Notes: generated by a model not told the origin, from the letters alone. 49,083 nt of DNA, filler included, from Porpidia crustulata (GCA_964255105.1; 2 parts of 2 records of this genome joined end to end with filler, not necessarily neighbours in it); one strand, 5' to 3'; positions 25,581 through 47,999 are shown, counted from the first letter of the whole stretch. Numbers and translations: made by a program.

Positions 25581-26661
25581 TCAAAATATCGTATAACCAC
25601 CTAGCTTCTGATCAGCCCCATATTCAAGTAGAGTTCAGTCAATCTCACCATCAACCATTATATTCGTTCCCGTCATGAATTTTCGAGCAGCACTACACAG
25701 CAAAACCACCGCTCCAGTCAAATCTTCAGGATCTCCAATTCCCATGGGCGAGCGTTCCAGCCACAGCCGTCGCAGATCAGCTTGGGCAGGTCCGCCGGAT
25801 AGACGAGTGTTCATGATTCCAGGAGAGATCGAATTGACCCGAATCCCATGGCCAACCCATTCTGCGGCTAGGGAACGGGTAAGATGGAGAATGCCGGCTT
25901 TGGAGACGGCATAAGCTGGATGTGGCTGAGGCGTGTTGACAATGTGACCAGACATGGAGGCCGTGAAGACAATGGTGCCACTTGCTTTGCGGGCGATGAT
26001 GTCCCTGCGCGATTCTTGAGTTTGTTCCGTTACTATCGACGTACAAAAGGACAATCGTACCTGGCTACAGCACGAGCTACAAGAAAGGAGCCGTGTAGGT
26101 TGACATCCACAATCTTCCTCCATCTGCCAATATCATAATCAACAGCAAGCTCACAACCGGTAATGCCAGCAAAGCAGATGAGAATATCTATGCCTCCAAA
26201 CATGGCCGAGACATCTGAGACAGCCTTGTTCACAGCACCTTCGTCGGTCACATCAACACAAATGGAGCTGATGCTAAGTTTCTCGTCTTTACAAAGTGAC
26301 TGGAGATGCTCAACCGCTGCAGATCCCTGAGCACCATCCACATCCAAAATTGCTAGGCTAGAAACGCCGTGCTCGATCAACGCTCTGGTACACACTAGGC
26401 CAATTCCTTGGGCTCCGCCGGTGACTTTGTGCTTCTTAGTAAATGTTCAGGTTCTTTCTCCCCCAGGTTCGAAGCCAGAACATCAGACTTACCGACCGCG
26501 CGCTTTCCTTTCAAGGAAAATCGAGCTGATGCCCGCTCTGTTGGAGTCATTTCTGAATGAAGAACGTCTGGGATTGGCTTCGGAGGAAACGGATCTGGCG
26601 CGATTGGAAACGGTGTCATATATGGCACAGTACCCTTTGGAGGACCCGTATCGGAAGCCAT
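25581..26661 (-). CDS. Short-chain dehydrogenase/reductase (D-arabinitol 2-dehydrogenase / sorbose reductase-like), 4 exons
   Basis: Exons 26661-26493, 26424-26061, 26004-25649 and 25600-25581. Motifs: VTGGAQGIG Rossmann motif, FAGI, ASMSGHIVNTPQPHPAYAVSK (YxxxK), IRVNSISPG, and VDGGYTIF*. Confidence 0.9.
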
Positions 26662-27561
26662 GATTGACCAGGAGTTGGAGCCAACTAAGAGCACGAAGAT
26701 TGTTCTCTAGTAATAAAGAGCTATCAAGTTATTTGATCAATGCGTTGGGTACGTGGAACGCATGGGACGATCGGTCATTCAAAAAGCAGAAGCATTTCGT
26801 AAGCTTGATGAGACACTCCAAACTCCGATTTACTAAAGATCTATGGAGCTGTCGGAACCACAATCGCTAAGAGGCACTATCTCCAGATCTAGGTGAGGTG
26901 GTTTACCTAGGTATCCACGTATCCTAATGCGGGCCTCTCTCTTTTCTCGGCCGCTACGTCATCGAAGCCTCTAGCCATCTCTGTATTAGCGTCATGTCTT
27001 GCCTCCCACCTCCTTTCCTCCTTTCCTCCATTTCATTGCCATTCAAACCTGTCTCGGAACAACAATCTATAATAGCCACTACTATTGTAGTACGTCCACG
27101 ATGCTGGCCATCTCATGTCTACTTGAATGAGTAGATTATGTCAAGAGCTCTACCTATAACTTGTCTCGTGACAGCTGAGCTTGACAAGTTTTCCTTTGGT
27201 ACGACAAACTGGGCTGGACGTTGGCCAAGCTTCAGCTGCCGTAGGTACACCGAAGAGTTTTGCGCAGTGACTGTAGCTAAGGGTCGCTCAGCTGGGGGGA
27301 AGGTAATTTGACAATGTCTCAATTTATCAAATGGTCATGGCTCCTACGACTCGATGGAAATATCTTTGAAATTACGTTCAAGGCTATTAGATTTATGAGG
27401 TATCAAAAATTCTATATATATACATGACAGCCCTGTACATTTTGCTATTATGAGATTCTCAACATAAGATACCCATCACATCAGCTCTTAATATGAGAAT
27501 TCGTCAAGTCTGTCTGATTCCAGAACCAAACTTTTTATGCTGCAGAGTACCAGTACTCGGT

Positions 27562-27998
27562 CAAGTCTCCAACATCAGCGTGTGTCCGCCACCACGATCG
27601 TACTGCATCCCTAGAATTTCGGCGTCTTCTTTCTGAGCATCATCGTTTGCATCGCAGCTGTCGGAATCGGGCCGAGTTGGGAGTTCTATGTCCCTCGATT
27701 GCGGCATTTCTTCGCCATTGGCTATATTCTAAAACCAGTCTTGGGGAATAGAACATATTCGATTAGTATGGCCGTCCTTACCATCATCAGAGAGTCACTA
27801 GGCTTCCTAACACTTCCGAAGACGATACGCTCGCTACGCTTGCCATACGGTGACCATGCCGATCAACAAGGCTGATATCCCGAAAACGACGGTCGTTATG
27901 GTACCGCTTGAATCTGTCGGATTAGAAGTGAGCACCGGAACTGTCGTGAACGTATAGTTGTTGCCAATAGGCATTCCCAGCCGGGTAAGCGGCGCCAT
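27562..27998 (-). pseudogene. Probable decayed gene for a small single-TM protein
   Basis: ATG at 27998 gives MAPLTRLGMP...GTITTVVFGISALLIGMVTVWQA*RAYRLRKC*EA*, a hydrophobic helix followed by a basic tail broken by three TAG stops. A GTAAGG donor at about 27781 and a TTAG acceptor at about 27729 precede an acidic open segment. Confidence 0.4.
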
Positions 27999-28653
27999 AT
28001 TCGCCCCTTTCCTGGAGTGCAGAGTGTTACTTTCTCGGACGAAGAAAGTTCTGCGAGGAAAATGGGGAGGTTTGACGCCCTATCCTAGTTGAGGGTCGGG
28101 AACCTTATGATAAAAGGATTAATTGATGCTTTCCACTAGATGGATTTCCCTTACACGACCGGCCGTTGCATTATCGCCAAGATCAGTTAGGCCAGATCTA
28201 ACATCGATGCTGTCAGTCTCGTGATATCGAAGCCTCCATTTAAACTAGCTCACAATATGATGTTCGGAAAGGAACTCATATAAAACTGGGACCCACGGCT
28301 TTATATATAGCACCTTGATATATATAGTGGATTAGTCAAGAACAAAACGCGTTCGCATTTTATGAATGTTGAAGGATAATATATATAATGGAGAGTGTAG
28401 CAGAGAACAAGTGCGAAGGCCCGTTTCTTATAGAAATCAAGACCTCGAAAGATGTAGCGATCAACATTCGCACGCCAAGAAGCACTTCACTTTCGTTGAT
28501 TGAATCGCTTACATTTCGTGATAAAAAATTGAAGATTCGACTTCGTGAAGAAATTTTCTTCACACAGATACACATGCGTATGCAACTATGTATGGAATTT
28601 CACTTCATCTGTTAAGAGAAAGTGCTGAAAAATTATATCTATAGTGAATCGGT

Positions 28654-28844
28654 AAAGAAAAAGTGCGTTTGCAGGTTGAATCAAGGCCAATTCTTTCACA
28701 CGAATACTGCTGGTGCCTAGCAACTGATCCAAAACAGTATTGCAGTAGTGGCCTTGCTGTGGCTTCACCAGACGTCGACCCGCTCCTTCTGCAGCCATCC
28801 GATTTTGCGCAGCTTAATGATGAAGCTTGGAACATTATCTGCGT
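28654..28844 (+). repeat. Diverged direct repeat, copy 1 (partner at 39326-39533)
   Basis: Aligned by eye; shared blocks include AAAGTGCGTT, TCACACGAAT, CCAAAACARTATTGYAGT, TGGCCTTGCT, CGATTTTRCGCAGCTTAA, GAAGCTTGGA and TTATCTGCGT. Confidence 0.85.
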
Positions 28845-30141
28845 CTACGGCAGATATGTCTGATCAACTGTGTATCGTGTCTGTGAGTCCACTGACGGCT
28901 ATATGAATCAGATAACCCATTCCATCAATTTATGATGCGGTGTGATATTGTTTTCACATCCCCCTGCGATATTCTTTTTCCAGACAGCATTTGGACCGCG
29001 TAGGTAGATCTGCTAGAGAGGAGCAAGAAGATGGCTCTATTCGATTCTCTGCAACGTATGACCTCCACTCCCGAGGAGACGTCTAGCTAAACCTCAAATC
29101 ATCCAAATGAAGGTCGTGCGAAGTTTGGTTCGCTCATGTCCATCAACATCAACATCTCAATCCATGCAGCCTTCCATTACAGCAGGGTGTGGCAATGAGT
29201 CACGTCGGTCGCTGCTTGTTTCCGAGATTGGTCGGGTGCTCTCTCATCGCAATCTCTAAATCGACACTTCGATATTTCGTTTTTCCATGATGGCTGACAG
29301 CAATCGACATCATTGTCGCCGTGGAGCTGTGGTAGAGATTTACGCTCCTTTCAGTGCCTGCGCACATCAGACACGTATCCCCCTCTCGATTCTAGTTCCA
29401 CATCGATTCTCCTGCTTTGCAAGCACCCAAAAGACTCACCTGTCACCTCTCACAATATTCAATGCGATCGGATTTGGTATCCTTTTCTTAGATCTTTAAC
29501 GTAGGCTCAAAACGTGTACTCTCACGTTATGGCGTTCAGCAGCTAAGAATATTGAGAGAGACATCAGAGAGGCGCTGTACGGGTCAATCTGTCGCTGCTC
29601 GCTTGTATGATTCGACAACTTGGCCGTAATTGCTTCAGGTCGTCTAGTTTAGCGGCTTCGTCATCACTTTCTGCAGCCATCTGATGGAGGTCTTATTTTG
29701 GATGGTGGTAGTGATAAGATACCATTGCAGGTACCCGAGCCGCTGCTCCCGCTTAAAGAAATAGCGCTCCCGAAGCAGCCGCGGAAGTCGTTCTCTAGAG
29801 GAGTTTTTGAAACTTTTACAATCCGATCCGGTCGGATCCTTTTCTGGTCGGTAACAAAAAGTGAAAGAGCACCATTATGGAGGGTCCATGCCCATCAATA
29901 GACAACAAGTGCACGAATGACGAAAATATCGCCAGCGTGGCTAAATACAAGGCATGAGAACCAACAAATCGTACATATTGATCCATGGAATACCTTTCGT
30001 CATTGAGCGTTCACAGTATTCTTGGCTGGCCGTGAGCTTTTTTGTCACCGGATTATCGGATCTTGCAGGTCTAGCTTATTATTAGCTTTTCCATAGTTCT
30101 TACAAAAATGTCTCTGCTAGGTTCTGGTGAACTTAACATTT

Positions 30142-32481
30142 TCAATTTAGTCGCAAGTTACTCATAACCTGATCACGAACATGACGCTGGAATTGCCAAT
30201 CATCCTTCTTATCTCGGATGCCTCGTGAGAGACATGTTTTGACAGCCCAGGCGTACCTGGACCCCACAGTATGGGCAAGCTTCTTATCGCATAGTCGTAT
30301 AAAGGTATCCCTCAATATCTCTGGATCATTGATGTTTGAGAATGCCTTTCTTTCTGGATCTAACGCATATATTGGACGCCAAAATGCAATTTCGAGCAGG
30401 AGGATACCCTATTAATGATAATCAGAGCCATCTATTTATTGTGATCGGATATCGTCGCTTACTCACCAATGCATAGATGTCATGCTCCCTTCTAAATTTC
30501 ATCGGCCGTCCCCAGCGATCTGGATGAAGGTAGAGGTTGCTTCTCAAATCCCAACTAGCATGCATGAGGCTTTCCGCTGCGGTTGGTCATGAACAGTCGA
30601 AGCCGAGAAGGAAAGGCTTGGAAAGATCAGCCATGTCTTTCGGCTTCTTGTCCGAAGAGTTTTCATCCCTATCAACGCTAGAACAGAAAAATGTCAGGAC
30701 GTTCTCGCTTTTGATATTCTTATGCAACCAGCCAATTGAGTGGAGCCTAACGACCGCGGCAGCCACTTTGTAAGCTAGCTCCACGCGAAGTTCGAGCGGT
30801 ACATTCGGAGTCTCTCGGTAGCATTCTGCTAGGATCAAGTGAGACGAGGCCGAGTACTGCTCGGGAATTGCGTAAATGAATCCTAGGCGAGGCCGGTGTA
30901 AATGCTCACGAACAATGCCTTTTCCAGCTAGGGTGCAGAATATTTCGTCCTTTGGTTCTGCATGCAATGTTGCAACCTTCTCAGCTTGCATAATTGCTGC
31001 TGCGGGTATCTCTTTCGTGGCAATGCCTGTCCGTGCAGAGTCTGGAACTTGGTAGTAGTATTCCACTATCACTTCGACTTCTCCTATCATCCCTCTCCTG
31101 AGTCGTTCTCCGTCCTTAGCAGGATCCTTGAAACGGACCTTCGTGTCCTCGAAAGACTCAGCCTTGGGTACCAGCTCTTTCAGTAACTCAAGTCGCATTG
31201 AAACCCTGTTCGCCAGTCCGGACATCCTGGTTCCTTCTATCGCCGCTAGATTCTGGAGCTGTCTTGGACTAGTATTTGCAATACAGTCCTCAATGGTCTC
31301 TAAGAATGCTTGGCTCTTTCTTTTCAGATTTTTGGTAATCTCAACAATGTAAGCCTCATCTGGTCCCATGGGCGGAATAGGTCTGTCAACCACGGAAATA
31401 AGATCTTCGAAATGATGCACAAGACTCGCTTTCGCAGCAAGCGGGATACACGTTGCATCTACACAATCGTCTTCCAGCTTTTGTTCGCAAAGTCTCTGCC
31501 CGACATGTAGTACGCTCCTCGCTTTCGTGTACGCTTCGCTTATTTCGATAGTGGAAACAATCCTGGGTGAGGAAATAGTCAACCACTGCATTATTCTTTC
31601 TTTCTGTATTCCGCTTGGCTCCTCAAAGAGCGATATGTCCATGCGAAAAGAAGGCGATTGATCACCTTGCAGATGAGCGAACAATTCATTAAATAACACA
31701 AGTTTACGAAGTGTTATACTTTCCCCGGCTATTGGAGCGTAGAATGGTTGTTGTTGTAGGTTGGACTCTTTCTGGAGGAGACGCTTGTACAAGGTAGTAA
31801 TTTCAAAGCTTCCGTATTCCTGTAAATTTTGTCTCATCTCCATCATAAGGGCTTGAGTAAATGATGGATAAACTTGCCCGACACCGGGCGTACGCAATCC
31901 CATTGCAGCGGCAGCTAAGATTTCGACTTTGTGAGAGGCCCGGCTTCTCACGACTTGGCCGGCAAAGCAGCAGTCTAACAGGATCAAGACATCGGATTCC
32001 GCGTCTTCCACAATGGGTTGAATCAAATGCCAGCGGACTGTTGGTCCACCAACCTTTTTTCTATGCATCCAAATTAGACCAGCAATGCTCTCAAATCTAG
32101 TGACAGCAACGAATCGGGCCCTTACGCTGCCCATACCGCTTGCCTTTCTCCCGCTAAGTCTGGGTCGCCATGGCCTGCGTAATAAATTAAAATCAAGTTC
32201 CCAAAGGCTCCATACGTGTAGAGGAAGTCCGATACTGCACGGTTGAGAGAGTCTTGTGGTCTGTCAGTGTGTATGAAAAATAGCTGCACACGATAACCAA
32301 AATCTGTCCTTAGGATTGCAGCAAATTGCTGCACTTCTGCAAGGCAACCAAGATCATCGTCTTGCCACAATAGCATCAACGCCGTTACCAATTTGTAATA
32401 TCTTCCCCTTTGTGGTCGATACTGCCTCAGTCGCGCTGTTAGATCTGCTTTGAGGGAGGTGGTCTCCTTCGATTCCATCAT
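30142..32481 (-). CDS. Caspase-like (clan CD/C14-type) domain + helical linker + pseudokinase; 3 exons; one in-frame TGA at 30587-30589 (possible pseudogene allele)
   Basis: Exons 32481-32126, 32060-30467 and 30408-30142. The dyad motifs are LILIYYAGHG and DVLILLDCCFAG. The C-terminus reads LHSIGWLHKNIKSENV, PFLLGFDCS*P, NLYLHPDRWG, HDIYAL|GILLLEIAFWRP and GSRYAWAVKTCL, the pattern of fungal HeLo-associated kinase-like domains. Confidence 0.8.
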
Positions 32482-32696
32482 CCCTAATACTCTCGATTGT
32501 TGATGTTGAAGTCCTTGGAGTATGCTGGTAGGTGCTAGCTACTGGCAAGGCTGATAGCCTAGCTGCTCGATACTTTAGGGTTAGGGCTTGGTCGAATAGT
32601 GTGTTGGAAAAGTAGAGTACAGTTCTTTTCAATACTTTTTTCTCACGTAGTGTCGCAGGCTATAGATGCTTTAAGATATCTATCTCTAGTATTCCA

Positions 32697-35600
32697 ATGG
32701 CTTCAAGCATCATTGCTACCTCCGTGGATCGTCAAAGTCAATGGTGGTCAGACCTGGACACCTGGAAATCTCACGCCAACCCTATTGCATCTCCTAGAAT
32801 TACCCCGTATTGGGACTTCCTACTTGCTGCCGCAAGTTCTAAATCCGACTTTCTGACACTCTCGGGTCTCGGCCTGTACTCCGATAGGTATCGCACTGCT
32901 GGTGCTGGAGCTACTTGTATCGTTCAGATTGGAAAGACAAGTCGTGGCAAGCTTGTCGCCGTCAAGGTTGACCGTGCAGCGTCACAACCGTTGCAGCGAA
33001 CTGCTCCTGGTCAATACGAACAGACCCTTTCTCAACTCGCAAAGGAATTACGGCTACTGAGCAATGAGAAACTTAGACAGGATCCCTATATCATAGACTT
33101 GCTTGGTTTTGGAATAGAAAGCCTTGGCGGCTCGATTTCGTGCTTCCTGGTCACAGAATATTGCGAGGTGCGTTCCCGTTTTCCGGATTCTCCCAAACCT
33201 TTCTGCAGTGACCATCTTGATCATTTCGAGAAGATTAAAGCCTCTCGCATAGTGTTTCACCCTAGCAAGTACTTTAGAACCTTCCACAGATCGAGCAGTA
33301 GCCTTGACTAATGCTTTATACTCGGCATAGTTAGGTGATCTCAGGCATTTTCTGAAAATGAAATGGCCAGTATCCGTCCATCAAAAGCTTGGTTTTTGCC
33401 GAGACATTGCGCACGCACTGAAATCGTTGCATCGACTGAACATTTGCCACGGAGATGTTAAGTTGGAAAACGCTCTGGTCTCTGCGTCCTCTGTGCACAC
33501 CCACTGGCATCTCAAGCTCTGCGACTTCGGCCATGCACAAATAGGCCAAGGGGACGGCCCAGATACCATGGTAACGCCCACAATTGGCACCCGCTTACTC
33601 TGCGCTCCCGAGTTGTACCAAAGCCAATCGTCGTCTTTGAGAACTATGAGCATCTCACAAGCCATCGCCACAGACATTTTCTCCTATGGTCTCCTGATTT
33701 GGGAAGTCTTCAAGCATGGCGAGTCATTCTTCAATGATGCATGGCTGAAGGATTCCAGTATTCGTCGTGATGGCGCCAACGTAGAAGCGAAAGAAGATTT
33801 CATGCTTACTCTTCACAATGAAGAGCTTTGTGAGCTTGCAGTGAAATCCTTGACTATTCTCATGACTGGAGGAGACAAGAGGTTGGAGCGTATCACTAAG
33901 CTCATCTATAGTACACTCACTTATAATTCTCAACTGAGGCTGACTATCTGCGATCTGATTCCTATTCTGGGAGACGATTCGCACAAAAGGTGACATGATT
34001 CAATCCATCCTCACTTCTACTCAACTAAGAGCAACAGCGACGACTCTGTTTCTAAGGAGAAATTAGACAGGCCAGAGAGTACTCGCCATGATGCTGCCTC
34101 AGCTATGATACAAGCATCATCCATAAGAGAGGTAACGTGTAAATAAGAAATGGTGTTTTCCTGGATCTGCCCTAATTCTGCTAGATCTTCAACTTCGCCT
34201 TTGAAAACAGCTGCTTTGATATGGATAGTATCCCCTTCGCGTTTTGCCAAAACATTATCGAAGACTTGAAGAGAATTGAAAGTAATTCAGACATGACTGG
34301 CTCAGAACGAGCTAAGGCGGATATGCTGCTAAGTGAATGCTACGTTCATGGCATGGGAGTGAGTACAGACTCTACCATGATGCTCTATTGGCTGCATCGA
34401 GCTGCAGTTCTAGGATCAAGAAAAGCTGCTGCATGGTACCACCGTGTCAACATTGCCATCAACGTTTCACCAGCGCAATGCTCAGAGGCTATTGATGGAA
34501 AAGAATTTGATCTTGCGTGGCTAGACTTACCGAGCGAGGGTTATCTTCTAGCACGCATTCGGCATTTTCAACACACTCGAAAGATAGTAACATTAAGGGA
34601 ACGTCAATCTTTTACATCAGGGGGCTTATGTACAGAGATACCACCAAAATCTACGTATCGCTTACCAACGTTCAACGAAGATCAGCAGGATGAGCTGAGC
34701 TTATTACATTTTGCAGCCTTTGCAGACAGTAAGGTGAGTGTCAGCAATCCCACAATCTAGCCATACTGGCAACCCAGCTGTAATGGTGGAGGAGGTAGCG
34801 TCTTTCGCCTCTCATTTGCTGTCCCTAATCTTGGACTGGAAACACCCTCTTTACTGACCACTGGATTCGCCACCAGGCTTTACGTAACCTCGAAATTCGC
34901 GAAACATCCAACACGACAAAGTTTGGACGTAATCTGCTGTTCTATACTTGCTTTGCAGGTGATATAGTCAATCTGCGATACCTGATTAAATGCCAAGGTG
35001 CCCTAGCCCAAGATGATCGTTTTGGAATTAATCCGCTGCACTTGTGCATATTCTTCGATTCAGAAGAAGTTGAAGAGGCTGTGTCTACACTACTGAAGGC
35101 GGGCGCGAACATTGAATCGTCTTCAAACTTCATTTGTTGGGAAGATCATGACATCGGCCTCTTCGGTACAGCAATCGAGTGGGCAGTTCATTGTCGTCAT
35201 CTTCGTCTCGTCCAAGTCCTGCTGCAGCATGGGGCAGCGCTCAAGGGTCTGGATATCGCCGTCAGTCTGTTTTACTACGAAATTATAGACTTCATGCTGG
35301 AGCAAGATGATTGCAGCGCAAGGAAGGAAGAGTGCCTATCGGCGATTCATGTAGTCGACCGATCTTTTCGTCACTGGATTAGTCACGGTAAAGACCACCT
35401 ACATGCGATATCGAGGACTTTTGATGTTCTTCAGAGCCATCGTGTTTCCATTAATAGTCAAATAATAAGGACAGAAGACAGCAACTTGCTCATCAGCGTT
35501 ATTCAAAGCACATGCACGTCTGAGGACTTCGAAACTATCCGACAACTTGTCACTAGAGGCCAGGATATTAAGCATAAAGACGGTATGGGTTATGATCTGC

Positions 35601-36835
35601 TTGGGTGGGCTATCCAAAGATCGGGGCAGGACGAAGCATGGGCTCCAATCTTGGACTTTATCTTAGATTACTTCACCGTCGAGGAATTAGAGGGCCCTTT
35701 CGTTTCTGAGGAATCATATCTTCATTATGCAATCATCTCAGATAGCGTCGGTGCCAAAGCTCTCCTCCGCAAAGGCGTGAACATTGACCTAGTCTCAGAA
35801 GATGTGCTCGGCTATACGCCTCTATTGTATGTTGTTGAGGGTGATAAATCAGGTGAGATGATAGATCTACTCTTAAGTCATGGCGCGAGCATTGAACCTG
35901 CAGGGCTTTTGAGACAGACCCCGCTTGAGACAAGACTCTCAGGTCTTCAGCGTACTGGCCAATCAGTTGACAAACTCCTAGAGCATTACTCTTTAAACCG
36001 TCTGTGCGTACGTAGCCTTCATTCTACATTTGAACGCGTCATTGGGGGTCAAGAAAGGCCGGATAGAACCCGGGATGACTGTCTTGAAGGTTTTCGACAT
36101 ACTATTGGAAACCCATCTGTCCGAAAAATCCTCGATGAGCCAGATTCAACCGGTCCGGAAGGCTCGCTCTTGCACAAAGCTGCATCACTGCTGCAGCCAT
36201 ACCTGGTGCAACTACTCCTAGAGGCTGGGGCCGATGTAACACGGACAACCAGAACCGTTCTTGGGGATCTCAATGCATTACAAATTGCTGCAGAAAATGC
36301 AAGGGCATTATGTTATTTGAATCTGAGTGGCCCTTTGCAAATCCACGGCACACTTGGGAAATCCAGGCAAGGTGCGTTTCAGGTGGCTTACATGATCCTC
36401 AGCGAGCATCAATCACAGCAAGATATCGCGTTTCAGGGTATCAGTCCACTCCATCTTGCTGTAAAAATAGGTGATCTCGAGAGTGTTCAAAATTTGATCG
36501 CTTCACATCCAGAAGCTAAACAAAAATTGGGTCGGTGGCCTGGCTACCTACACAAGGTAAAGCCTTGTGATCTGATCAGCTATCGTTATAGGATCATCAA
36601 TCCCTACTTGACTCTATCTGAGATTCAAGAAGCTCCGAATCTCTCACAGCCTCAGTTTCGCTTTGAAGGGTCTATTCAGGAGTTGAATAAAGCGATGCAG
36701 GAACATCCGACAAGCTTTCAAGACATAATCACTGAAGGTGAGGAGATCAATGGAAACCCGATCAAAGTGTGCTATTCCTGGCGACGCGTTCTTGAACATA
36801 TAACGAAAATTTGGGACTTGGTGAAAGTTGAGTAG
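32697..36835 (+). CDS. Ser/Thr protein kinase + SEL1-like repeat + ankyrin-repeat protein, about 5 exons
   Basis: Exons about 32697-33167, 33331-33989, ~34030-34130, 34185-34733 and 34877-36835. Kinase motifs are GAGATCIV, VAVK, KELRLL, HGDVKLEN, KLCDFG, APE and DIFSYG. SEL1-like segment: LSECYVHGMGVSTD...YWLHRAAVLG. Ankyrin motifs include GINPLHL, GYTPLLY..LLLSHGA, LLHKAA..LLLEAGADV and SPLHLAV. Confidence 0.85.
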
Positions 36836-37601
36836 CCGCTCGCCTCATAAACCTAGGTCTCAAAAAATAAGTATGCACATCCCATAATTGGAAACCCTAC
36901 TCAAGAATGAGCTTCGATGTTGACTTTCAGAGGACCAAATGCCACCTTGTTTAGCTCAGAGAACTAGCGTCTCTACGCAAGAAGCGTGCTTCAACTCTCT
37001 CTGAGTAGACTGCGCCAGTAGCTAGGTCTTTCAACTCGAAGTGATGATTCGGCAGCGCCATAGTGATCTGGAATGGACCCAAAGCAGCTCGAAAGGAGGG
37101 TTTAAGGATGTATACGGTTTCTCCGATTTCGAATGGGAACTGTGTTAATATTTAACACAGCTGGATCTTTAACAACAAGACTAGAGTCTCGTACATCCAG
37201 AGGCACAGAATATTTGGCAACATATGATCTCCAATCGATGTCAAAATCCTAATTGCGGATCAAAGACAGATCGCGAACAGCATGTTGGGAGATTACTACT
37301 TCATCTGATGTATTCATTTGATTCGCCTTCGACGACGTGGAGCTCTTAGGTGTGTTTTCGGTAGACTTCTCCATAGCGATAAAGCTAAAGTTTGATGGCA
37401 CTGGCAAGACGAGACTGGAATGAAATGTTATGAAATCTAGCATAAACGGTGCCGGGGCGCAGAGTGAACGTCGTACAGCCTGACCCCACCTGATACAGTT
37501 TCAGGCAGTAGTCTTAGCTGGTGACGTGGCAAGCCCGGTAAGCACGCCGAATGGCCGATGGGAATTGGTTTCATGCAGGCCAGCGTGCTCCATGATAGAA
37601 G

Positions 37602-38869
37602 ATGCAGCAAGAGCCCATTCACCAAAATTGTACACACAACGTGGCGCTGCTAGCAATGATTAAATTACAGAAGGGTAAAGGCATCAATTACCAAGGGCTC
37701 TTCGGGACCCAAACCGCTAATAACGTTTCTTGTGTAGTGGAAGAATACCAGCGAGGATATTCTCGTCTGGCCGCTTTCATGAGCTTAGATGCGAATTTCT
37801 CGATGGTCAAACGATTTGACTTCTTACATATGAGACACTTGCTCTATCTCCAAGACAGCCTCATATATCAGCAAGAACGACTAGACACCTGCGATGATGC
37901 TGATGACATCCAACTACATCACAGCAGTCGACGCCAGGATGACAATGAGACAAGGAAAGCTTTGATGCAAGAGCTCGAAGTTCTGCTGAACAAGTATGGT
38001 TAGGCAATCTTTTTGGTCTTTTTCTCAACTATCCTACATGGCATAGATAATCATGAGCTGAGACACAACTTGTTTACAAGACGAGACGGTTCTACGGTTC
38101 GGGAAACTCCTAGACCTAAACTCTGTCTCGGATAGTAGCTATGAGAGCGTCAAGAACTGGGTTGATGGCAACAAGCCGCTGGTACGATCTGAGTCCCGAC
38201 TCTTCCTCCAGGAAGTCAGAGATAGGGATATCATTGCCCTGAAACAAACCGACGAAAAGGGGGACTTCGCCCAGCTTCTCATCCGACTTGCCAAATTCGT
38301 TCATCCGAGGCTCTCGCGCAAAGTAGGTCCTGTGATGGTGCTTGACGTACTGGGAGTGTACTGACGTGTTGTCGTTCAAGCTGCTGTCAAGCAATGTCAG
38401 CAAGGCACATTTTCGCGCACTCCTTTACTCATGCCATCATTCTTATTATCGCCGGCACATGAGCCTCATACTGACCATTGTGTATGCATACATTCAGGCA
38501 TTCCTCGCCCAAAGCAAAGACACCAACATCTTCCTCTACCAACCGGAGAACTTAAGGCGCATGGAGCTCATCATGACCGTGATCGTTGCCTCATTCTGGC
38601 TGATCACTCCAACTTATGCCTTCTACTACGTCTCACGCCCAGTCACTCGCGGTTTTTTGTTCTTGGTGTGCCTCGTAGGTTTCTCCATTATAGTGAAGCC
38701 TAAGAGTACCAACGCCAAGTATGAATTGCTTCTTGCTCTGACAGCGTAAGCTTCTTGTATTATCCTTTTTCCATTCAATTGAACAGAGGTGGAGAGATTG
38801 ACATTGGACTCCAGGTATTGTGCTATCCTGAGTGCATTTTACTCAAATACCGGCGACTCTAAGAAATGA
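37602..38869 (+). CDS. DUF6594-like fungal membrane protein, about 5 exons
   Basis: Exons about 37602-37674, 37738-37998, 38081-38322, 38498-38745 and 38815-38869. The N-terminal VEEYQRGYSRLAAFMSLD..FSMVKRFDFLHMRHLLYLQ, the middle SVKNWVDGNKPL..E and three C-terminal hydrophobic helices ending ..LTAYCAILSAF match the DUF6594 pattern as I recall it. The start codon is uncertain. Confidence 0.78.
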
Positions 38870-39099
38870 GATGTCGTCTACTATCCACAGACTCGCTAGT
38901 CTATGTAAGTTCTTCTATCCATCCATAAACCGATCATCGCTTTATGAAGCTTCCACCTCTTTACGCTCGTTACGGCCGATATCGACACTTCACCTCAGTC
39001 TACGTATAGATTCGGGGTTGAAAAAGGAAGTTTTGATTTTCAGGAAAAGTGCGTTATCGAGGCTGTGCCAGACAACAGTGCTGAGAATTTCTATTATTA

Positions 39100-39305
39100 T
39101 GTAAAGAGAGCAGCATATAGCCGGGTACTAGGCAGCCGATTCGGGCTCCCCGCCTGCTGCGCCCACTACATCGCTCCCCCGTACTCCCTCTATGCTCTCC
39201 CCGTACTCCCTATATGCTCCCCCCGTGCTCCCTCTAAAGCAGCTCTGCCCCCTTTCCCGGAAGAAAATAGCAATCTTCAATGCTAAGTTCGGGGTATGTC
39301 TAATA
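39100..39305. mobile_element. ~206-bp insertion (possible solo LTR) containing a 3x ~21-bp tandem repeat
   Basis: It interrupts the homology with repeat copy 1: AGTGCTGA.AATT at 39077 resumes as ATAGT..AAAGA.AAAGTGCG after 39310. It begins TGT and is flanked by TATTA / TATTT. The unit GCTCCCCCGTACTCCCTCTAT is repeated about 3 times at 39173-39236. Confidence 0.4.
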
Positions 39306-39325
39306 TATTTAAATAGTAGATTAAC

Positions 39326-39533
39326 AAAGAACAAAGTGCGTTCGCAATTCGTACAAAGGTATTGTCGGTCACACGAATCCTGTTGATGCCTGGCAGCGGA
39401 CCCAAAACAATATTGTAGTGATGGCCTTGCTATGCCTTCATCAGTGTGATACTGATACTGATGTCGATCCACTCCCTTTGCAGCTATTCGATTTTACGCA
39501 GCTTAAGAAGGAAGCTTGGAGTGTTATCTGCGT
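39326..39533 (+). repeat. Diverged direct repeat, copy 2 (partner at 28654-28844)
   Basis: Same blocks as copy 1, with a short TGATAC-repeat expansion at about 39447-39461. Confidence 0.85.
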
Positions 39534-41448
39534 TTTCATGCTTGCCTTGTCGAATAGAAAAAGAATTCCCCTCTGACTCAAGTTTCGAGGCTCCGATAAC
39601 AGCTTTGCGGTTATGATACTGCACCTTACCGTACACAACCCGCTTGTCTTGCATTAAGACCAAAGGTTCACACAACAATCGGAAAGACATTAGCGTACAA
39701 AGAGCCAAAGGAAGCTATTCTGAAGATCCAAAGCGGCTAGCGAGGTCGAGGATTCCGAAAAGAATATGCAACATTAGTATACGTAGCAGCGTCATTGTCT
39801 TGCTACATGAAGTGTCTAGTCACAACCACTTAGACGTCTTAGAACCTATGGTAGGAGTGAAATCTGACTTCGAATCAGGGCCGAATATCGATAGTTCTCA
39901 TCGGCAATTCGAATGACATCAAATAATTAGAGACTACAGCCAACGGCCACTCGACTATCGACAGGCCAGCCATATTTTAATCCTTGCGCCGCTCCTCGAA
40001 GACTTTTGTGAACTTTTTATCCGGGTGCTGCAGCCTCCGTCTTAATTGAATGCGCAGAAGAACCGGAAGACCCATATTTCACTGTTGCAAGATACTGTTA
40101 CACATCAGGCAGCAAGCACAGCCCTAGATATGGCAGCCTTCAAGAGAAGCCGTATAATGGGCTGCAGGCTGTATTTAACCAAGGACGAGCAAGGATGAGC
40201 CAAGAGCAGCCGTATAACAGTTTAGTGCTACCGCACGTTTTCGAACGAAGTGCTGTCCTCCCTTGCCCCTTAAGCAACGCAAATTCCCACCCGCAGGCAA
40301 GCATACTGAAAACTTACAGGAGAAATCAACCAAAGAGCTGCCGGCTTAATTGAGCCTCATGTTAGACTGAATAGGTAAGCCTATGTACGTGGTATTTCGT
40401 CAGCCAGCATAGTGACGCTCGAAAATCGTAATCGGCATACCCAAAGTTTTGCGGGTCTGGAAGGGAAATGCACCGTTGCCGTTGCCGACGTGTACGTGAA
40501 CGACACAAGAGTCGTTGACGAAGAATTGAGATTTCGATTGTATAAGCGACATCGCCTTCTGATCTATTAGTGTTCCATCAAAGTACAAGAGCGCGGTGGG
40601 CCTCTTCGATTGCACAGTACTCGAAACTCGGTGTCGGCGGGAAGTCGTCCTATGAGATAGAGAAATTCGTGGCCACGGTCAAGACCTGGTGATCTGTTAG
40701 GTCGAGGATAGTGTTGACGTTGAAGCCTACGTCCTGTAAACGGCGATGATGTGTGCCACTACGCCCACTCCATGATGATTGGCAAAAGGCACATTCTGAG
40801 TTGGGAGCCAGAAGAGGCCTTTTACCCCAGTGTAAGCCAGCTCATAGTCAGCATGGTAGAAGCGTACAGCTTACTCCAGCTCGACGCCACATGTAAGAAT
40901 GATTGGAAGCTTTGTCCAGCGACAATAAAAAGGTTGGAAAGAGATCAAGAAAATGACGAATGCCCGATACTGCTTTCGGCTGATTAGGGTTTGGATAATG
41001 TACTTAACATAGAAGATAATGAGCATTGTCAGAAGTGTTGAAATTCATTGTCTTTGAGCCGAATGGTAGGACACGGAACTCAACAACGATCGAGACAGAG
41101 AAATGCTCCAGGATCAAGCAACAGGATGGAGATTGACCTACATCAAATTTCACGTCATAGTCGTGGTGTGCGAGCTTTACAGGGTTCAAGACCAACAGAG
41201 CTTTCCACCACCGTGAAGGATGAAGCTATGAAACCATGATGCAAGTTTCAGGAGATGTTTTTGGAGCCTGGGTAAATACTAATTACACCCATTGACAGCA
41301 CAGGGCTTTCCCCTGATAGAATTTTACCAGGTATCTTTCCCTCGTGAGTGCCGTCAACTTTGCTTCCGCCACTTAAGCCGCGCTCACCGCTCTTCGAAGC
41401 AGATTCAACGCTTACAAACAAGAGCGGCAACGCGGATTGACTTCATAG

Positions 41449-42444
41449 CTACCATGTCGTCTCAGCTTCTTTCTTTGGCTCCGCGTTCCAGCCATCGTTG
41501 CCAGTCTGCACTGGAGCAGAACTGGCAGCCCAATCTGCGCCATCAGCTTCCCAGCTTGACCCAGGCTGCGCACCAGCGGTATTGGAAGCGGCGCTGAAAG
41601 CAGCTGCGCCACCCGGAGCACCGCCAGGTACTTCCCACTCCGAGTTGCCGGCGAATCCTTGGTCGACGGCAGCCGGCCCGACTTCATCGACACCTGGAAC
41701 TTTGCCTTCCTCCACGCCTGCAGCGTCCTTGTTCTCCTCTGCTTCGGGGTCGCGGTAGAAGTAGAGATCAACCATCACATCCCATTCGGTCTCTCGGTTG
41801 GCAAGAGTTCCACGCAGACGAAGGACCTCACGGGCCAACATCCACCAAATCAAACCTATCGCATGACGACCTTTATTGTTTGTAGGGATTGCAACGTCCA
41901 CAAACTCCGTTGGTGAGTCTGTATCGCATAGGGCAACGACGGGAATGTTGACGTAGGAAGCTTCTTTGATAGCTTGCGCGTCAGTACGAGGATCGGTGAC
42001 GATGATGAGACGGGGTTCCTTGAACGATCGAGTAATGTAATTTGTGAAATTTCCAGGGGTGAATCGTCCAGCAATAGCGACAGCACCAGTATGAGCGGCG
42101 AACTTGAGAACAGCACGTTGACCGTAGGGGCGGGCCGATATAACAGCGATATCAGCAGGATTATCTACGGCCGCGATTATACGCGCCGCAAGTACAACCT
42201 TTTCCCTACAAGAGCAGAACATTCAGCGCTCATTCAAGACCAAGAGAGGACTGTCATTTGTAAGAAGGAATTACCAGGTCTTGCCGATGTTGATCACATT
42301 AATACCATCGGGACGAGTCTTCCACAAGTAGGGTTCCATATGCACTTGTAAATTCTTGCTGCCCAAATGACATTGCGCTGCAAGAAGCATTTCGATATCT
42401 TGGGAGGTAGCATTGAAGATTGGAGGGAGATTCGCTGGGGCCAT
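41449..42444 (-). CDS. RPS0: 40S ribosomal protein S0/SA (uS2), 2 exons
   Basis: Exons 42444-42275 and 42205-41449. Motifs: [67 protein letters not shown] and DLYFYRDPE. Confidence 0.97.
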
Positions 42445-43750: not shown

Positions 43751-44618
43751 GACTTGATCATTCTCTCACTGGGCAACAATATCAATTCATGAAGACGAAT
43801 ATGACCGTCGTGGATTGACAAATGACTGATCATTTTGTGGGAGCCGATATATACCCTATCAATGAATGGACAGCTGTTTATAGCAAGCCTCCGGAACGGC
43901 ATGGTTTTACGTCAGTCTTGACGCTTACGCTACTCGGGGAATTGAAGGAGATTCCACGTTTGTACGGCGACTTGAGGGCCTGGCCCTCGTTGACGCCTAC
44001 ACTAAAAATACTATAATCGAAGACAGACGTGTGTTGCATAATTAATGATCCAAACACTATTGGTGATGTGTTGACAATATAAATTCAATAACAATGCGTC
44101 ATTTTTTGACAATTGTGAGATATCAAACATTCAACACAACTGGCAGTGACAAAATTCAGAGCTCTATAAATTAGCGTGTAGAGGTTCTTCACGACGATGT
44201 GAGGTTGAGTTCTCGATTAAGTGATCTTCATGACAAAAGCTGATGATTACGAACGAACATCAGACTCGGAATCTTCTACCATTACCCCTTGAGAATCCTG
44301 ATGGAATTTTGAGAAAATCTGAGAAGCTAAAGATGGGGTTTGATGGTGTGTTTTCAGCCTTGTGCTCAGCCGCCCTTGACCGCTTTCAGGTAAGCGCGCT
44401 AGTGTAATCGGCAAAAAAACAAGTTAACGTCGTCAAGCAACGCAACAACCATCGTCAACAACCACACGCCATACTTTCCCGCATCTGTGTTGCACCTACC
44501 GTATCATCCAGCAAAAACCCTGCATTGACTTCGACAATCGACATATCGCGCGAAAGGCCTGGGATAGTCGCGAACGAACGAGCAGGCTGGGCTGAACTCC
44601 TATCACTGAGACGTCAAG

Positions 44619-47600
44619 ATGCCGACTACACGGGCGAGAAGACAGGCCCAAGAACAGTCTGGAGTTCCACCATCGCCCCAAAGCGTCCTCCCGGCAACCC
44701 TACGAAGACGTACTCGATCAAAAAAATCAGAGAAGGCCTTGGAAGCATCAGTAATAAAAGCGACGGAACATGTGGAGGATCCCAAGAGTGAGATACAGGC
44801 TCATTTATCAAGTCCCATTGCACATCCCGTGCTGGAAGCGGTATCCGTATCGCCTTCTATCGTTGCTCCCTCATCAAGCGCTGCCGCACAGCCCGTGCCG
44901 GAAGTAGTGTGTACGTCTCCTACCGTTATGACTCCCCAACTGGCAAATATTGGTGTGGGCCGAATTGTACATTCTGCTCCGAGACTCCCCGTACCCGCTG
45001 CAACGTTTGATTCAGCGTCGCGCAATTATTCTCCAAGTGCAGCCAGGTATCCCCTACCTGCTGTCGAGAATATTGCCCCCCTCGCTCGCGTTCCCGCAGT
45101 ACCTCAAACACGAATGCACCTTTGGGTAGACGTCACTTCAGAGAACATGTCAAGTATTGAACCAAGCAATGGCCCCTCGCTTGCCCTCACAATGCCTTCA
45201 AGTCTAGTTCCTGAAATTATGGCATTGATCGCACGTCGACCAGCTATAATGAACAACAAGCTTACGCACGCTGCAGTTACAGAATCATTTGCACCGTCAC
45301 CAACGAAACGCAAACTTTCGGACGACGCCGATATGCCGCGGGCAGCCCACCGACTCCGCATCGAGGAACGTCACGGCTCCGCTTCTAGTCCAAGTTCTCG
45401 TCAACGAAGACCCCTAGCCGAGTCTAATTTACAATCGAAACCTTTCGAACTACCGTCAACAACAAAATGGAAGAGGCGCCGGATGCTAAAGCAAAGAGCT
45501 TTGTACGACAGAAACGGCAATATGCAATTGAGTGGCCTAGATGAAGATCATACGTGGGAGAATACTGAACTTGCTGTGGACAAACTTCCACACTCGCCAT
45601 CATTCAAAGAAAATTTACAAGCTAACGACATCACGAGTTTAGAAGGAAAAGCGGATGAGATGCTTCGCATGCCAGAGTTAGAACGCCAGGAGCCAGTAGA
45701 GCGCGAGGGTGAATCTGCAGCAATCGAGTCTGGTGCTCAGCTAGTCGTTGCAGCCCGAAATGATCCCACGACACCAAATGCTTCAAGATGGGGGTTCGGA
45801 AGCCTCTTACATTCTGCTCAGACTATTACAAAATACATCCCGCTCCTTAAATTGAAATCTACAGCTGCAGCCCCAAAGGTCGCCGAACTCGTGAGTGTAG
45901 TGGCTCCTCCAGCGCAGCCGCCGTTATCTCAGGTTATGGCACAGACCGAACCCCGACCCGCCACCCAGTCTAGCGTATTCGACAGCTCGCCTGCGAGCGA
46001 GAAAGTCAGACCTGCTAGGAATCCCCGGTCTCAGAAAGCGCCATTAAAGAGTGCTTTAAAATCTAAACAGGAAGTTATTGATAAGCGCAAGCAAAGAGCA
46101 GAGAGAGAATTCATGCGTGAACAAGCTGATTTCGTCAGAGCAGACGACGCTCGTAAGGCTCGAGAGGCTCAAGATCGGGAAACTATGCGGCGTCGAGCTG
46201 AGGCGGCTGTTACTCCTGGTGGGAAACGCAAGCGCCTACCGTCACCAGACACTATCCCTAACCCACCAGGCGTTAGTTTTGGCATGGACCTAGACTACTT
46301 CTGCTACTCTAGCTCAGACGAAGATGTGGAACAGATTACCCCAACGAAGCAGCCTCCAAGTAAGAGGGCCAGGATCAGCTTACCGCAAGCTATGCCTGGG
46401 CCATTGGTGGGTGATCCGCTCAGAGCACAGCCGTATACTGGTGTTCTCTTCGCGGACCCCAAGGAGAGCTACCATGGTGGTAACATATTCGGTGAGACCG
46501 CATCAAGTGCGAATGCTGCCCTAAGAGCTGCCGATATGGTGCAAGCACGTGCAAGCCCTTCTCCCATGCGAGAAACCAGCGCTACCGCAGCCAGAGTAGC
46601 AGCTATAGGTTCCATCACCGGCGAAGCTCATGCAACAGCGACAGATTTCATTGCAAATGGACATTCAAATGATGCTCCCAATCTTGGGATACCTGCTCCA
46701 CCCGTCATCACTCCGTCAGTCACTTTTGCGGTACCCGACCCTTCAGATAGCGACAGCGATGAAGAGAGTGAACCTCAGGATGCTGCCTTAACGGGTGCTG
46801 TACAAGTTCCAACTTCTGCTAAACCCACCGACAAATGGACGCAACCACCCCCTCCGCCTCCTACTCCTGCCCATGCTACTTTGCCTTCTAGTGGAATAGA
46901 CGACGAGCAATTGAATGATGCTATAGCAAGGGCTCGTGCAAATGCCAGGAAGTACGCTCCAGCTAAATCGAGCTTACTCGGGCAGTCAAACGAAGTGGCT
47001 AGTCCTTCGGCTACTTCAAAAATCAATAGCAATCAGTCATTGAAGAGTGTAGGACCTACTTTTCAACATGCTGCACAAACTACTGGACAGCCAGATTCGG
47101 CCATTAACGGATCAGAGAAGCCCCCCAACGCTTTCGAGTTACACGAGGCCATTAAAAACTATGCAAAGTGGAAATTGGAGGTGGATCCTGTGGTCTCACA
47201 GTTGGTGGACGATGAGTGGACAGGGCAAGATCTTAAAGCCGCAGAGGATGGGTTGGAGGCAGAATTACAATTCGCAGAAGATGGACAGGAGCTAGAGCTC
47301 AATGAACCTCTCGTAGCGGATGAGCGCGATTTAGACGAAAGTACGGACCAAGCTCTTGATGACTATTTGGCGACCGATAAGCCCGATGCTATCGATACCA
47401 TGGACCAACAATCTGGAGAATTTCTTGCAGTCAACGACCCCAGTTCGGACGAAGACATGAACTTTCTCGCAACCAATGAGCCCGGTTCTGATGATGCATT
47501 GGATCAAGCTCTTGCCGAGTACTTTGCGAGCGAAGCACACTCCGCGGAAAGCACAGTGGCTAATCACCACGCCGAACGAGAGCTACTGTCTGATGAAACA

Positions 47601-47999
47601 CAGTCTCTTCAATATCCCATTTTGCCAGATAATCCTCATGAGAAACCCGGATCGGCCTTTCGTCCAGATTCGCCTGCAGGAGTCTCAAGCGCGGACATGA
47701 CCTCGGACAAATACCTGGCAACAAATCCAGGGCATCTCCGTTTATACACTCCAGAGCCAGTCGAGCTCTCAAGCGCAGAGTTGGACGCAAGCCGTGAGGA
47801 AAGTCTCGGACTTCGTTCGTACATATCAGAAACCGGAGACGCAAAGATGACAGCTCTTGACGGGTTTGGTGCCTTTGATGCCTTTCTGCATACGACTGAT
47901 CCCAATGTAGCCAACATGATCAGTCACGTGTCGGCCACAAAGGTTCCAGACTTCATGGCGGCCACATCCGAGGAGGTCATGGGTGATGGGCCTTTCTGA
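44619..47999 (+). CDS. 1126-aa largely disordered hypothetical protein (basic N-terminus, acidic C-terminus, NLS-like motifs)
   Basis: A single uninterrupted 3.4-kb ORF rich in P/S/A. It contains a coiled-coil-like KRKQRAEREF...RRRAEA segment and short motif islands (GKRKRLPSPDTIPNPPGVSFGMDLDYF, WTQPPPPPPTPAHATLP, ARARANARKYAP). Confidence 0.8.
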   Translation: MPTTRARRQAQEQSGVPPSPQSVLPATLRRRTRSKKSEKALEASVIKATEHVEDPKSEIQAHLSSPIAHPVLEAVSVSPSIVAPSSSAAAQPVPEVVCTSPTVMTPQLANIGVGRIVHSAPRLPVPAATFDSASRNYSPSAARYPLPAVENIAPLARVPAVPQTRMHLWVDVTSENMSSIEPSNGPSLALTMPSSLVPEIMALIARRPAIMNNKLTHAAVTESFAPSPTKRKLSDDADMPRAAHRLRIEERHGSASSPSSRQRRPLAESNLQSKPFELPSTTKWKRRRMLKQRALYDRNGNMQLSGLDEDHTWENTELAVDKLPHSPSFKENLQANDITSLEGKADEMLRMPELERQEPVEREGESAAIESGAQLVVAARNDPTTPNASRWGFGSLLHSAQTITKYIPLLKLKSTAAAPKVAELVSVVAPPAQPPLSQVMAQTEPRPATQSSVFDSSPASEKVRPARNPRSQKAPLKSALKSKQEVIDKRKQRAEREFMREQADFVRADDARKAREAQDRETMRRRAEAAVTPGGKRKRLPSPDTIPNPPGVSFGMDLDYFCYSSSDEDVEQITPTKQPPSKRARISLPQAMPGPLVGDPLRAQPYTGVLFADPKESYHGGNIFGETASSANAALRAADMVQARASPSPMRETSATAARVAAIGSITGEAHATATDFIANGHSNDAPNLGIPAPPVITPSVTFAVPDPSDSDSDEESEPQDAALTGAVQVPTSAKPTDKWTQPPPPPPTPAHATLPSSGIDDEQLNDAIARARANARKYAPAKSSLLGQSNEVASPSATSKINSNQSLKSVGPTFQHAAQTTGQPDSAINGSEKPPNAFELHEAIKNYAKWKLEVDPVVSQLVDDEWTGQDLKAAEDGLEAELQFAEDGQELELNEPLVADERDLDESTDQALDDYLATDKPDAIDTMDQQSGEFLAVNDPSSDEDMNFLATNEPGSDDALDQALAEYFASEAHSAESTVANHHAERELLSDETQSLQYPILPDNPHEKPGSAFRPDSPAGVSSADMTSDKYLATNPGHLRLYTPEPVELSSAELDASREESLGLRSYISETGDAKMTALDGFGAFDAFLHTTDPNVANMISHVSATKVPDFMAATSEEVMGDGPF

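Follow-up and report, generated by a model that had tools for sequence, protein, structure and literature searches.

The stretch of DNA analysed here (the window: 49,083 nucleotides, filler included, from two parts of the Porpidia crustulata assembly GCA_964255105.1 joined end to end) carries three spliced genes between positions 30,142 and 38,869, which we name G1, G2 and G3 and have studied by sequence comparison and structure prediction. G1 (30142..32481, minus strand) is predicted to encode a fusion of a caspase-like protease with a DUF7580 pseudokinase, G2 (32697..36835, plus strand) a protein kinase followed by a linker and ankyrin repeats, and G3 (37602..38869, plus strand) a membrane protein of the DUF6594 family. 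Because their co-location is conserved in other fungi, the view that the clustering of the three genes is not due to chance, and that they make up one linked module, is strongly supported by comparison of the sequences. We consider it an even call whether this trio is a conserved module of filamentous ascomycetes that works as a switch analogous to that formed by RIPK3 and MLKL in necroptosis, but with a different executioner.

The boundaries of G1 rest on splice sites, reading frames and colinearity with homologues, those of G2 on the splice model and orthologues, and those of G3 on Pfam matches, the gene model and insertions and deletions in relatives. These exon models confirm the three genes recognized in an earlier reading of the same DNA (the sequence-only reading), including its observation that G1 and G2 are divergent, with start codons at 32481 and 32697 and 215 bp between them (32482..32696, as measured from both gene models). 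This intergenic stretch is presumably a shared promoter, to judge from the layout.

The evidence for linkage comes from metagenome contigs and from the order of accessions or locus tags in three genomes. Contigs scanned with G1 motifs yielded 43 loci, 35 of them distinct, covering 280,270 bp in total, and neighbouring genes were first detected in them by tblastn with the window's own proteins. G1 of the caspase type occupies 11 distinct loci, seven of which have an adjoining DUF6594 gene (L001/2, L003, L004/5/8, L006, L007/9, L013 and L016); G2 is also present in six of the 11, giving the full trio side by side. The kinase domain of G2 is found in L001/2, L004/5/8, L013 and L016, and L003 and L006 hold its ankyrin end only, at the contig edge. 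Among the remaining four loci, L011, L012 and L021/22 have 1 kb of flank or less, and L018 has flank on the 3' side of G1 only, a side on which neither G2 nor G3 is present there and which is also empty in the window. Across the six trio loci G1 is 26-40% identical to that of the window, and the arrangement of the genes, by order and orientation, takes at least four different forms: with arrowheads for direction, G1<>G2>G3 in the window, G3> <G2<>G1 in L001/2, G1> <G2<>G3 in L004/5/8, G1> <G3 <G2 in L003 and L006, and G2> <G3<>G1 in L013 and L016. When the open reading frames (ORFs) of nine loci were compared all against all, no fourth recurrent gene emerged, no other family being present in three or more loci.

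In the named genomes, the G3 homologue KAF2647153.1 of Lophiostoma macrostomum adjoins the G1 homologue KAF2647154.1 on the same 11,420-bp contig, M1821_007048 (G3) adjoins M1821_007049 (G1) in Bathelium mastoideum, and KAK0659741.1 (G3) and KAK0659743.1 (G1) of Cercophora samala lie one gene apart on the same 50,523-bp contig. Lophiostoma belongs to the Dothideomycetes and Cercophora to the Sordariomycetes, and the proteins from all three species are among the full-length best matches of the first exon of G3. When the top 20 G3 matches were checked, five were found on a contig equal in size to that of a G1 match, which is an indirect sign of co-location, and 15 had no such counterpart among the G1 matches listed; the five are the three just named and two others (contig sizes 31,482 and 121,442), and one G2 match (9,627) pairs with a G1 match in the same indirect way. 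The sequence-only reading had proposed, from the window, a linked module in which an active kinase adjoins a caspase-like protease gated by a pseudokinase, and had pointed to recurrent microsynteny of homologues as a check. The neighbours found in seven (G3) and six (G2) of the 11 loci, the rearranged orders of the six trio loci, the G1-G3 neighbours in three named genomes and the HeLo sister modules described below all bear it out. At a separate locus (L020, 1777-2633), the last exon of a DUF6594 gene (1777-2016, minus strand) abuts a partial pseudokinase (plus strand, from about 1992) without its N-terminal two thirds, and this resembles what rearrangement or decay of the cluster would leave.

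G1 has three exons (32481-32126, 32060-30467 and 30408-30142) and 738 codons; it is colinear throughout with 15 aligned homologues, which range from 727 to 754 amino acids, and at least 39 homologues are found across the Pezizomycotina. The sequence-only reading had seen a protease and a pseudokinase in it, and both assignments stand up to profile and structure comparison. The protease domain (31666..32394, minus strand) is placed by Pfam matches in the family, by a structure match and by a conserved catalytic dyad. In the window, the Pfam family Peptidase_C14 matches exon 1 with E 0.0024 and 18 bits, under the cutoff of 21.4, and the same family is matched at E<=0.01 in 7 of 10 G1 family members, the highest being the orthologue P0022 with 26.6 bits against the cutoff of 21.4. 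The ESM Atlas structure of residues 1-250 of P0022 resembles C14 clusters with template modelling (TM) scores of 0.70-0.85, and 26 of 30 Atlas feature matches for this protein fall inside the C14 set. The motifs YY-x-G-H, containing the His (codon 32172-32170 on the minus strand in the window), and L-D-C-C, containing the Cys (Cys-Cys codons 31972-31967), are kept in all 12 of 12 caspase-type loci and in 8 of 8 full-length NCBI homologues. The assignment of the N-terminal domain as caspase-like (Peptidase C14, clan CD) thus holds on sequence and predicted structure; a HeLo domain was not found at this N-terminus, where both Pfam and the structure match indicate the caspase-like fold.

The C-terminal domain of G1 (30145..31096, minus strand, split by the intron 30409-30466) was delimited by profile homology to kinases. 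DUF7580 matches the last exon of the window's G1 with E 1.2e-4 and 22.3 bits against a cutoff of 27, and exceeds the cutoff in P0023 (35.6 bits), P0032 (29.0) and P0022 (27.4); Pfam Pkinase also matches this domain in G1 orthologues, alongside DUF7580. The profile of the G1 family aligns with that of G2-type kinases by hhalign at 96.5% and E 7e-10, which puts the equivalent of the catalytic loop, HKNIKSEN, at 30724-30701 and the equivalent of DFG, GFD, at 30604-30596. The HGD of the kinases is aligned to H-K-x in G1, so that a residue that varies stands in place of the catalytic Asp (the window reads H-K-N, and the family has N, G, E or A there), and the assignment of this domain as a pseudokinase that has lost the catalytic Asp holds at the level of sequence. 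Of 18 aligned family members, 17 have a Ser or Thr after GFD. In a search of the Protein Data Bank (PDB) with the full-length profile A9, the top kinase-like matches of G1 are the pseudokinases of MLKL (6vbz, E 0.0068; 4m68/4m69, E 0.013), which are weak, followed by RIPK1, IRAK4 and others; the GFD of G1 is aligned with the GFE of MLKL, and the conserved Ser/Thr falls in the loop that carries the RIPK3 phosphorylation sites of MLKL. Between the two domains, the middle region (about residues 255-320 of P0022; about 31100-31650 in the window) has a conserved motif, R-W-x-T-x-x-S-P-S. The weak match that the region repeatedly gives to the archaeal peptidyl-tRNA hydrolase 1xty (PDB profile, E 0.003-0.0045) is uninformative and probably due to chance.

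The window's own copy of G1 is interrupted at codon 610 by an in-frame TGA (30587..30589, minus strand), established by alignment with the 15 homologues and from contigs of relatives. The codon falls in the motif GFDCS[R]P, where it replaces an Arg that is present in 14 of the 15 aligned homologues (13 with exact GFDCSRP and one with GFDCARP), none of which has a stop there. Because three relatives, on contigs of runs X2, X6 and X7 from three other studies, all have G at plus-strand position 30589 and so read CGA, while X1, a run that spans the whole stretch at a depth of about 11 and from which the window was probably derived, agrees with the TGA of the window, the sequences identify it as a private C-to-T nonsense change. 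The frame 3' of the stop is still open and conserved. Given this private nonsense codon, the module is therefore probably disabled or altered in this genome.

G2 has five exons (32697-33167, 33331-33989, 34038-34131, 34185-34733 and 34877-36835) encoding 1243 amino acids without an internal stop, and its orthologues include those of L001 (E 3e-102 over residues 406-1241) and L004/5/8; a profile search with G2 returned mostly generic ankyrin proteins and recovered four orthologues. The kinase domain (32874..33989, plus strand, split by the intron 33168-33330) matches Pfam Pkinase with E 6.5e-19 and has the Lys of VAVK (32964-32966), the catalytic loop HGDVKLEN (33448-33471), DFG (33523-33531) and also APE. 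In one alignment of G2-type kinases (A4, 10 rows) H-G-D, K and N hardly vary, and a second (A6) shows no variation at H-G-D, K, N and D; by these motifs G2 is an active-looking Ser/Thr kinase of a non-RD subtype with HGD for H-R-D. The C-terminal part is an ankyrin-repeat region (34877..36506, plus strand) matched by the Pfam families Ank_2, Ank, Ank_3, Ank_4 and Ank_5, the match to Ank_2 having E 3.8e-26 and 91.9 bits against a cutoff of 27.3. The description of G2 as a kinase-SEL1-ankyrin protein, given in the sequence-only reading, can therefore be kept for its two ends and not for its middle. The linker exon (34185..34733, plus strand) has columns conserved among orthologues (alignment A2), and no Pfam family matches it at E<=0.01; the best Sel1 match at E<=10 is one repeat with E 0.12 and 13.5 bits against a cutoff of 30.7, and the orthologous linker stretches of L001 and L005 have no Sel1 match. 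Neither NACHT nor NB-ARC, the domains of NOD-like receptors (NLRs), gave a Pfam match on the exons of G1, G2 and G3 or on the G2 orthologues. Between X6 and the window, the ankyrin piece 35594-36105 differs at 43 of 512 positions (8.4%), the kinase piece 33213-33619 at 14 of 407 (3.4%) and the G1 pieces at about 5%; this is a weak hint, from single contigs only, that the ankyrin region may be evolving faster.

The pseudokinase of G1 also occurs in other company, and these sister modules connect it with a particular kind of kinase. Behind an N-terminus that is not a caspase, a DUF7580 pseudokinase is found at 15 further distinct loci. Three of these have a Pfam HeLo N-terminus (L024, L026 and L028/29), five more have a HeLo-like one (hhalign 92%, E 5.6e-7), L040 and L042 have DUF7580 in frame with a kinase of a different subtype, and the N-termini of the remaining five are unassigned. 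At 10 of the 15 loci a kinase-ankyrin gene or an HGD kinase gene lies within 2 kb, nine times head-to-head, and of the five loci without such a kinase, three have little flank (L026, L033/34 and L036). Ankyrin repeats follow 3' of the neighbouring kinase wherever the sequence continues (L023, L024, L028, L039 and L041), and wherever the contig includes the catalytic loop of the neighbouring kinase, that loop reads H-G-D and never H-R-D. The DUF6594 gene, in contrast, goes with the caspase type: it is present at 7 of the 11 caspase-type loci and at none of the 15 non-caspase loci (Fisher p 5e-4), or at 7 of 7 and 0 of 13 if only flanked loci are counted (p 1.3e-5). As to the fused proteins, L040 (8198-10618) and L042 (3872-6307) each have the kinase, with the catalytic loop H-H-D and not H-G-D, and DUF7580 in one ORF, and in L040 a separate H-G-D kinase ORF lies 4.1 kb upstream of the fused one.

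The pairwise distances between pseudokinases and those between the neighbouring kinases are correlated across 14 loci (r 0.80, 91 pairs), and none of 5000 permutations gave a value as high. Because part of this correlation comes from the common descent of the organisms, what it shows is an apparent co-inheritance of the two genes as pairs and not an interaction between their products. In a maximum-likelihood tree of the pseudokinases, built from 36 rows and 184 columns, a single branch sets off all 21 rows of the caspase type; it has support values of 88/96, is present in 91% of bootstrap trees and sits beside the HeLo types. Since the caspase-type rows fall on one side of one branch, the tree is compatible with a single swap of the N-terminal domain.

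In the preferred model G3 has four exons (37602-37998, 38081-38322, 38498-38745 and 38815-38869) and encodes 313 amino acids. A 58-nt alternative to the 175-nt third intron would give 352 amino acids; the longer intron is favoured because relatives have 1-base deletions at 38410 and 38414 and because of the alignment with orthologues. The N-termini of the orthologues are better matched if translation starts at 37656 and 37675-37737 is taken as an intron. DUF6594 (PF20237) matches all three G3 pieces, exon 1 with 55.3 bits (cutoff 30; best E 1.1e-14) and exons 2 and 3 with 24.6 and 29.4 bits, and all 30 of 30 Atlas feature matches of the Cercophora orthologue P0153 lie in DUF6594 clusters. Hydropathy places three C-terminal hydrophobic helices at 38567..38860 (plus strand, split by the intron 38746-38814), so that the DUF6594-like protein with three transmembrane segments that had been read from the sequence is recovered here. 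An AlphaFold2 model of P0153 built with 14 sequences is all-helical with a long hairpin (predicted local distance difference test score 69, predicted TM score 0.46) and has its C-terminal helices at residues 197-225, 229-250 and 255-279. A conserved stretch, [ST]-x-D-x-N-[IV]-F, in the loop of low confidence that immediately precedes the first membrane helix is a candidate site of cleavage. A PDB profile search with G3 had as its top match a chemotaxis receptor with E 0.057. The family is large, with 610 representatives at E<=0.001 when one G3 exon is used as the query. The closest full-length relatives of G3 are DUF6594 proteins of Fusarium (the P0133 cluster, from the Fusarium fujikuroi species complex, e.g. 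FVEG_12493), with 52% identity over exon 1, and no Fusarium homologue of G1 is among the matches listed.

The trio is flanked by genes for a Sac1-type phosphatase, a cyclic AMP phosphodiesterase, a ubiquitin C-terminal hydrolase, an importin-beta-like protein, a short-chain dehydrogenase/reductase, ribosomal protein SA and mitochondrial S15, which are by their sequence housekeeping genes. It is colinear in the three relatives compared (X2, X6 and X7), whose similarity to the window is roughly 90-97% per aligned piece and whose coding divergence from it is 3.4-9.8% per aligned piece, and a search of 26000-42000 for direct or inverted repeats of at least 25 nt, as borders of a mobile element, found none. 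The accessory block in which the sequence-only reading had placed the genes is thus not what the surroundings look like, and the presence/absence polymorphism that it had thought worth looking for is not seen in these three relatives. No RNA families were found in 26000-42000, and no short motif (amyloid-like or docking) is common to G1, G2 and G3, all candidates having E > 0.05 except for the kinase/pseudokinase homology. In X2 and X7 alignment fails over the G1-G2 intergenic stretch: their contigs break off at 32537/32541, resume at 32694/32656 and continue over 32537-32694 with unlike sequence, the coding sequence on both sides being about 93-95% identical. Short compensated frame shifts, each a paired 1-base insertion and deletion, are present in exon 1 of G2 in X2 (at 32853/32858) and in exon 2 of G3 in X7 (at 38254/38266). 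Elsewhere in the window there is a 1129-amino-acid ORF (44610-47996, plus strand) without a Pfam match at E<=0.001.

If the trio is a RIPK3-MLKL-like switch, G2 would be the sensor, its ankyrin region receiving a cue, and would act on the MLKL-like pseudokinase of G1, with phosphorylation of the conserved Ser/Thr that follows GFD as the most likely means. This action would relieve the block on the caspase-like protease, and the freed protease would act on G3, probably converting the DUF6594 protein to a membrane-damaging or signalling form, with regulated cell death or defence as the outcome. G3 is proposed as the target because modules with the HeLo killing domain built in consist of two genes, and the protease type always adds a gene for a membrane protein; the argument is inferred from gene content. 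Death or defence is the simplest common denominator of the outputs because sister pseudokinases carry HeLo, a membrane-targeting cell-death domain according to PMC12881547, a 2025 review of fungal cell death. A wider account, which we put forward tentatively and rate distinctly short of an even chance, would make the trio one branch of an old phosphorylation-gated death system of ascomycetes, in which an HGD kinase-ankyrin protein stands beside an MLKL-type pseudokinase with interchangeable killing domains, mostly HeLo, and in one branch a caspase-like protease that cleaves and activates a DUF6594 executioner. Several observations weigh against the switch, or against parts of it. The loci were found by means of G1 patterns, and the hidden Markov models were built partly from the same loci. 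The MLKL matches of the G1 profile are weak, with E near 0.01, and G1 is broken in this genome. DNA-level tandem repeats are absent from 30000-39000, unlike the ankyrin repeats of hypervariable fungal receptors, so that the NLR-like signature of hypervariable repeats looked for in the ankyrin region is missing. For G3, likeness to known pore-formers was not found (hhalign to HeLo 0.4%), a Foldseek search with its model, which is of moderate quality, gave nothing at E<=0.001 (best E 1.1), and the VIA structure search gave only coiled-coil helical hairpins with Z up to 9.1, under the noise stated for helical proteins; to call G3 the target, and not an anchor, a sensor or an inhibitor, is to guess from its association with the other genes.

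The same absence of pore-former likeness suits a different account, in which the module is genuine but serves signalling and not killing: G3 would be an anchor or receptor that recruits the kinase via its ankyrin repeats, the pseudokinase a scaffold or allosteric activator (as in STRAD-LKB1 or KSR-RAF), and the substrate processed by the protease would serve signalling under stress, in development or in symbiosis. Conserved linkage fits any functional coupling, the weak PDB matches of G1 include the scaffold pseudokinase KSR2, and the window and several of the relatives apparently come from lichen-forming fungi; the fact that this pseudokinase is joined to a HeLo or HeLo-like domain at 8 of the 15 sister loci points the other way, and we regard this account as unlikely though far from negligible. 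Linkage that persists through shuffled gene orders could also be kept because separation is lethal, as in an allorecognition (het-like) system or a selfish toxin-antidote element in which one gene, e.g. G3 or the protease, is toxic and the others restrain it. The private nonsense allele of G1 beside intact copies in three relatives, and an intergenic stretch that cannot be aligned between relatives otherwise 93-95% similar, are what such an element might leave; yet the three relatives compared show no presence/absence polymorphism, their coding divergence of 3.4-9.8% per piece is unremarkable, and flanking repeats and signs of mobile elements are absent from 26000-42000, which makes this account improbable. 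The pseudokinase and the kinase of G2 are, moreover, homologous, so that their adjacency could in part be a relic of tandem duplication. Taken to its limit, this would make the three genes neighbours by descent only, the kinase and pseudokinase being tandem duplicates and the DUF6594 gene, from a family with 610 representatives at the one-exon threshold given above, hitch-hiking without functional interaction. We give that very little credence: the genes are still adjacent in no fewer than two fungal classes (three when L007/9, whose nearest relative in the pseudokinase tree is Mollisia, is included) despite four or more changes of order and orientation, DUF6594 goes with the caspase type only, and only these three families are common to three or more loci.

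Regulated cell death in fungi is currently explained by NLRs, by the amyloid templating of HeLo proteins and by gasdermins activated by proteases, and we know of no description of a route from kinase to pseudokinase in fungal cell death. In the literature searched, no paper mentions DUF6594 or DUF7580, and a description of the kinase pairing, of the trio or of a role for DUF6594 was not found in it, including passages of PMC12881547, PMC8851545, PMC9815663, PMC10197012 and PMC12258605, although supplements such as Dataset S2 of PMC8851545 could list related architectures. The conserved pairing with one kinase subtype would name the missing upstream partner of the pseudokinase proteins, and a fungal necroptosis-like pathway would become testable with three genes and a few point mutants. 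The caspase variant would bring together gating by a kinase and activation by proteolysis within a single module, and the role suggested here for DUF6594 would be the first proposed for this family with hundreds of diverged members. If the wider account of an old phosphorylation-gated death system is right, animals did not invent the kinase-pseudokinase logic of necroptosis, and a large orphan family, DUF6594, would gain a function.

Several known systems resemble the trio in part. The N-terminal domain of G1 has the predicted fold of the caspases of bacterial conflict systems (Atlas clusters named "caspase, EACC1-associated type"; TM score 0.70 by query), but those are fused to HSP70/MreB or tetratricopeptide-repeat modules and have no pseudokinase. 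In plants, tandem kinase-pseudokinase proteins such as WTK1/Yr15 and Sr62 act in immunity. Like the trio, these combine a kinase and a pseudokinase in one immune unit, and the proteins of L040 and L042 fuse both in one frame; in the window, however, the two are encoded by separate genes, and the fused kinase of L040 and L042 is of the HHD and not the HGD type.

Among fungal systems, the HeLo/HELL-pseudokinase ("MLKL-like") proteins share the DUF7580 pseudokinase with G1, whereas G1 has a protease in the place of HeLo. PMC12881547 mentions in one sentence that some HeLo-like domains sit in kinase or pseudokinase proteins, and its passages covered here name no partner kinase or gene pairing for them; here an HGD kinase adjoins 10 of the 15 loci. 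The het-Q1/het-Q2 clusters of gasdermin and protease genes (Clave et al. 2022, PMC8851545) are likewise clusters of two or three genes, in which the protease has as its neighbour a protein that is putatively membrane-active and that would be activated through cleavage by it. They differ in that G3 belongs to DUF6594 and is not a gasdermin, that the protease of G1 is C14-like and joined to a pseudokinase rather than being of the S8 or CHAT type joined to repeats, and that the repeats of the trio are on a separate kinase. The word "kinase" has no occurrence in the main text of PMC8851545, and PMC12881547 notes that proteases which control gasdermins may be fused to kinase-like domains. The closest parallel in logic would be RIPK3 and MLKL. 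There the effector is a four-helix bundle, while G1 has a caspase-like protease; the kinase of G2 has ankyrin repeats, no RIP homotypic interaction motif having been identified in it, the partners are encoded side by side, and the set includes a third gene for a DUF6594 membrane protein. What the two systems would have in common, by analogy, is an active kinase and an effector whose C-terminal pseudokinase gates an N-terminal killing domain.

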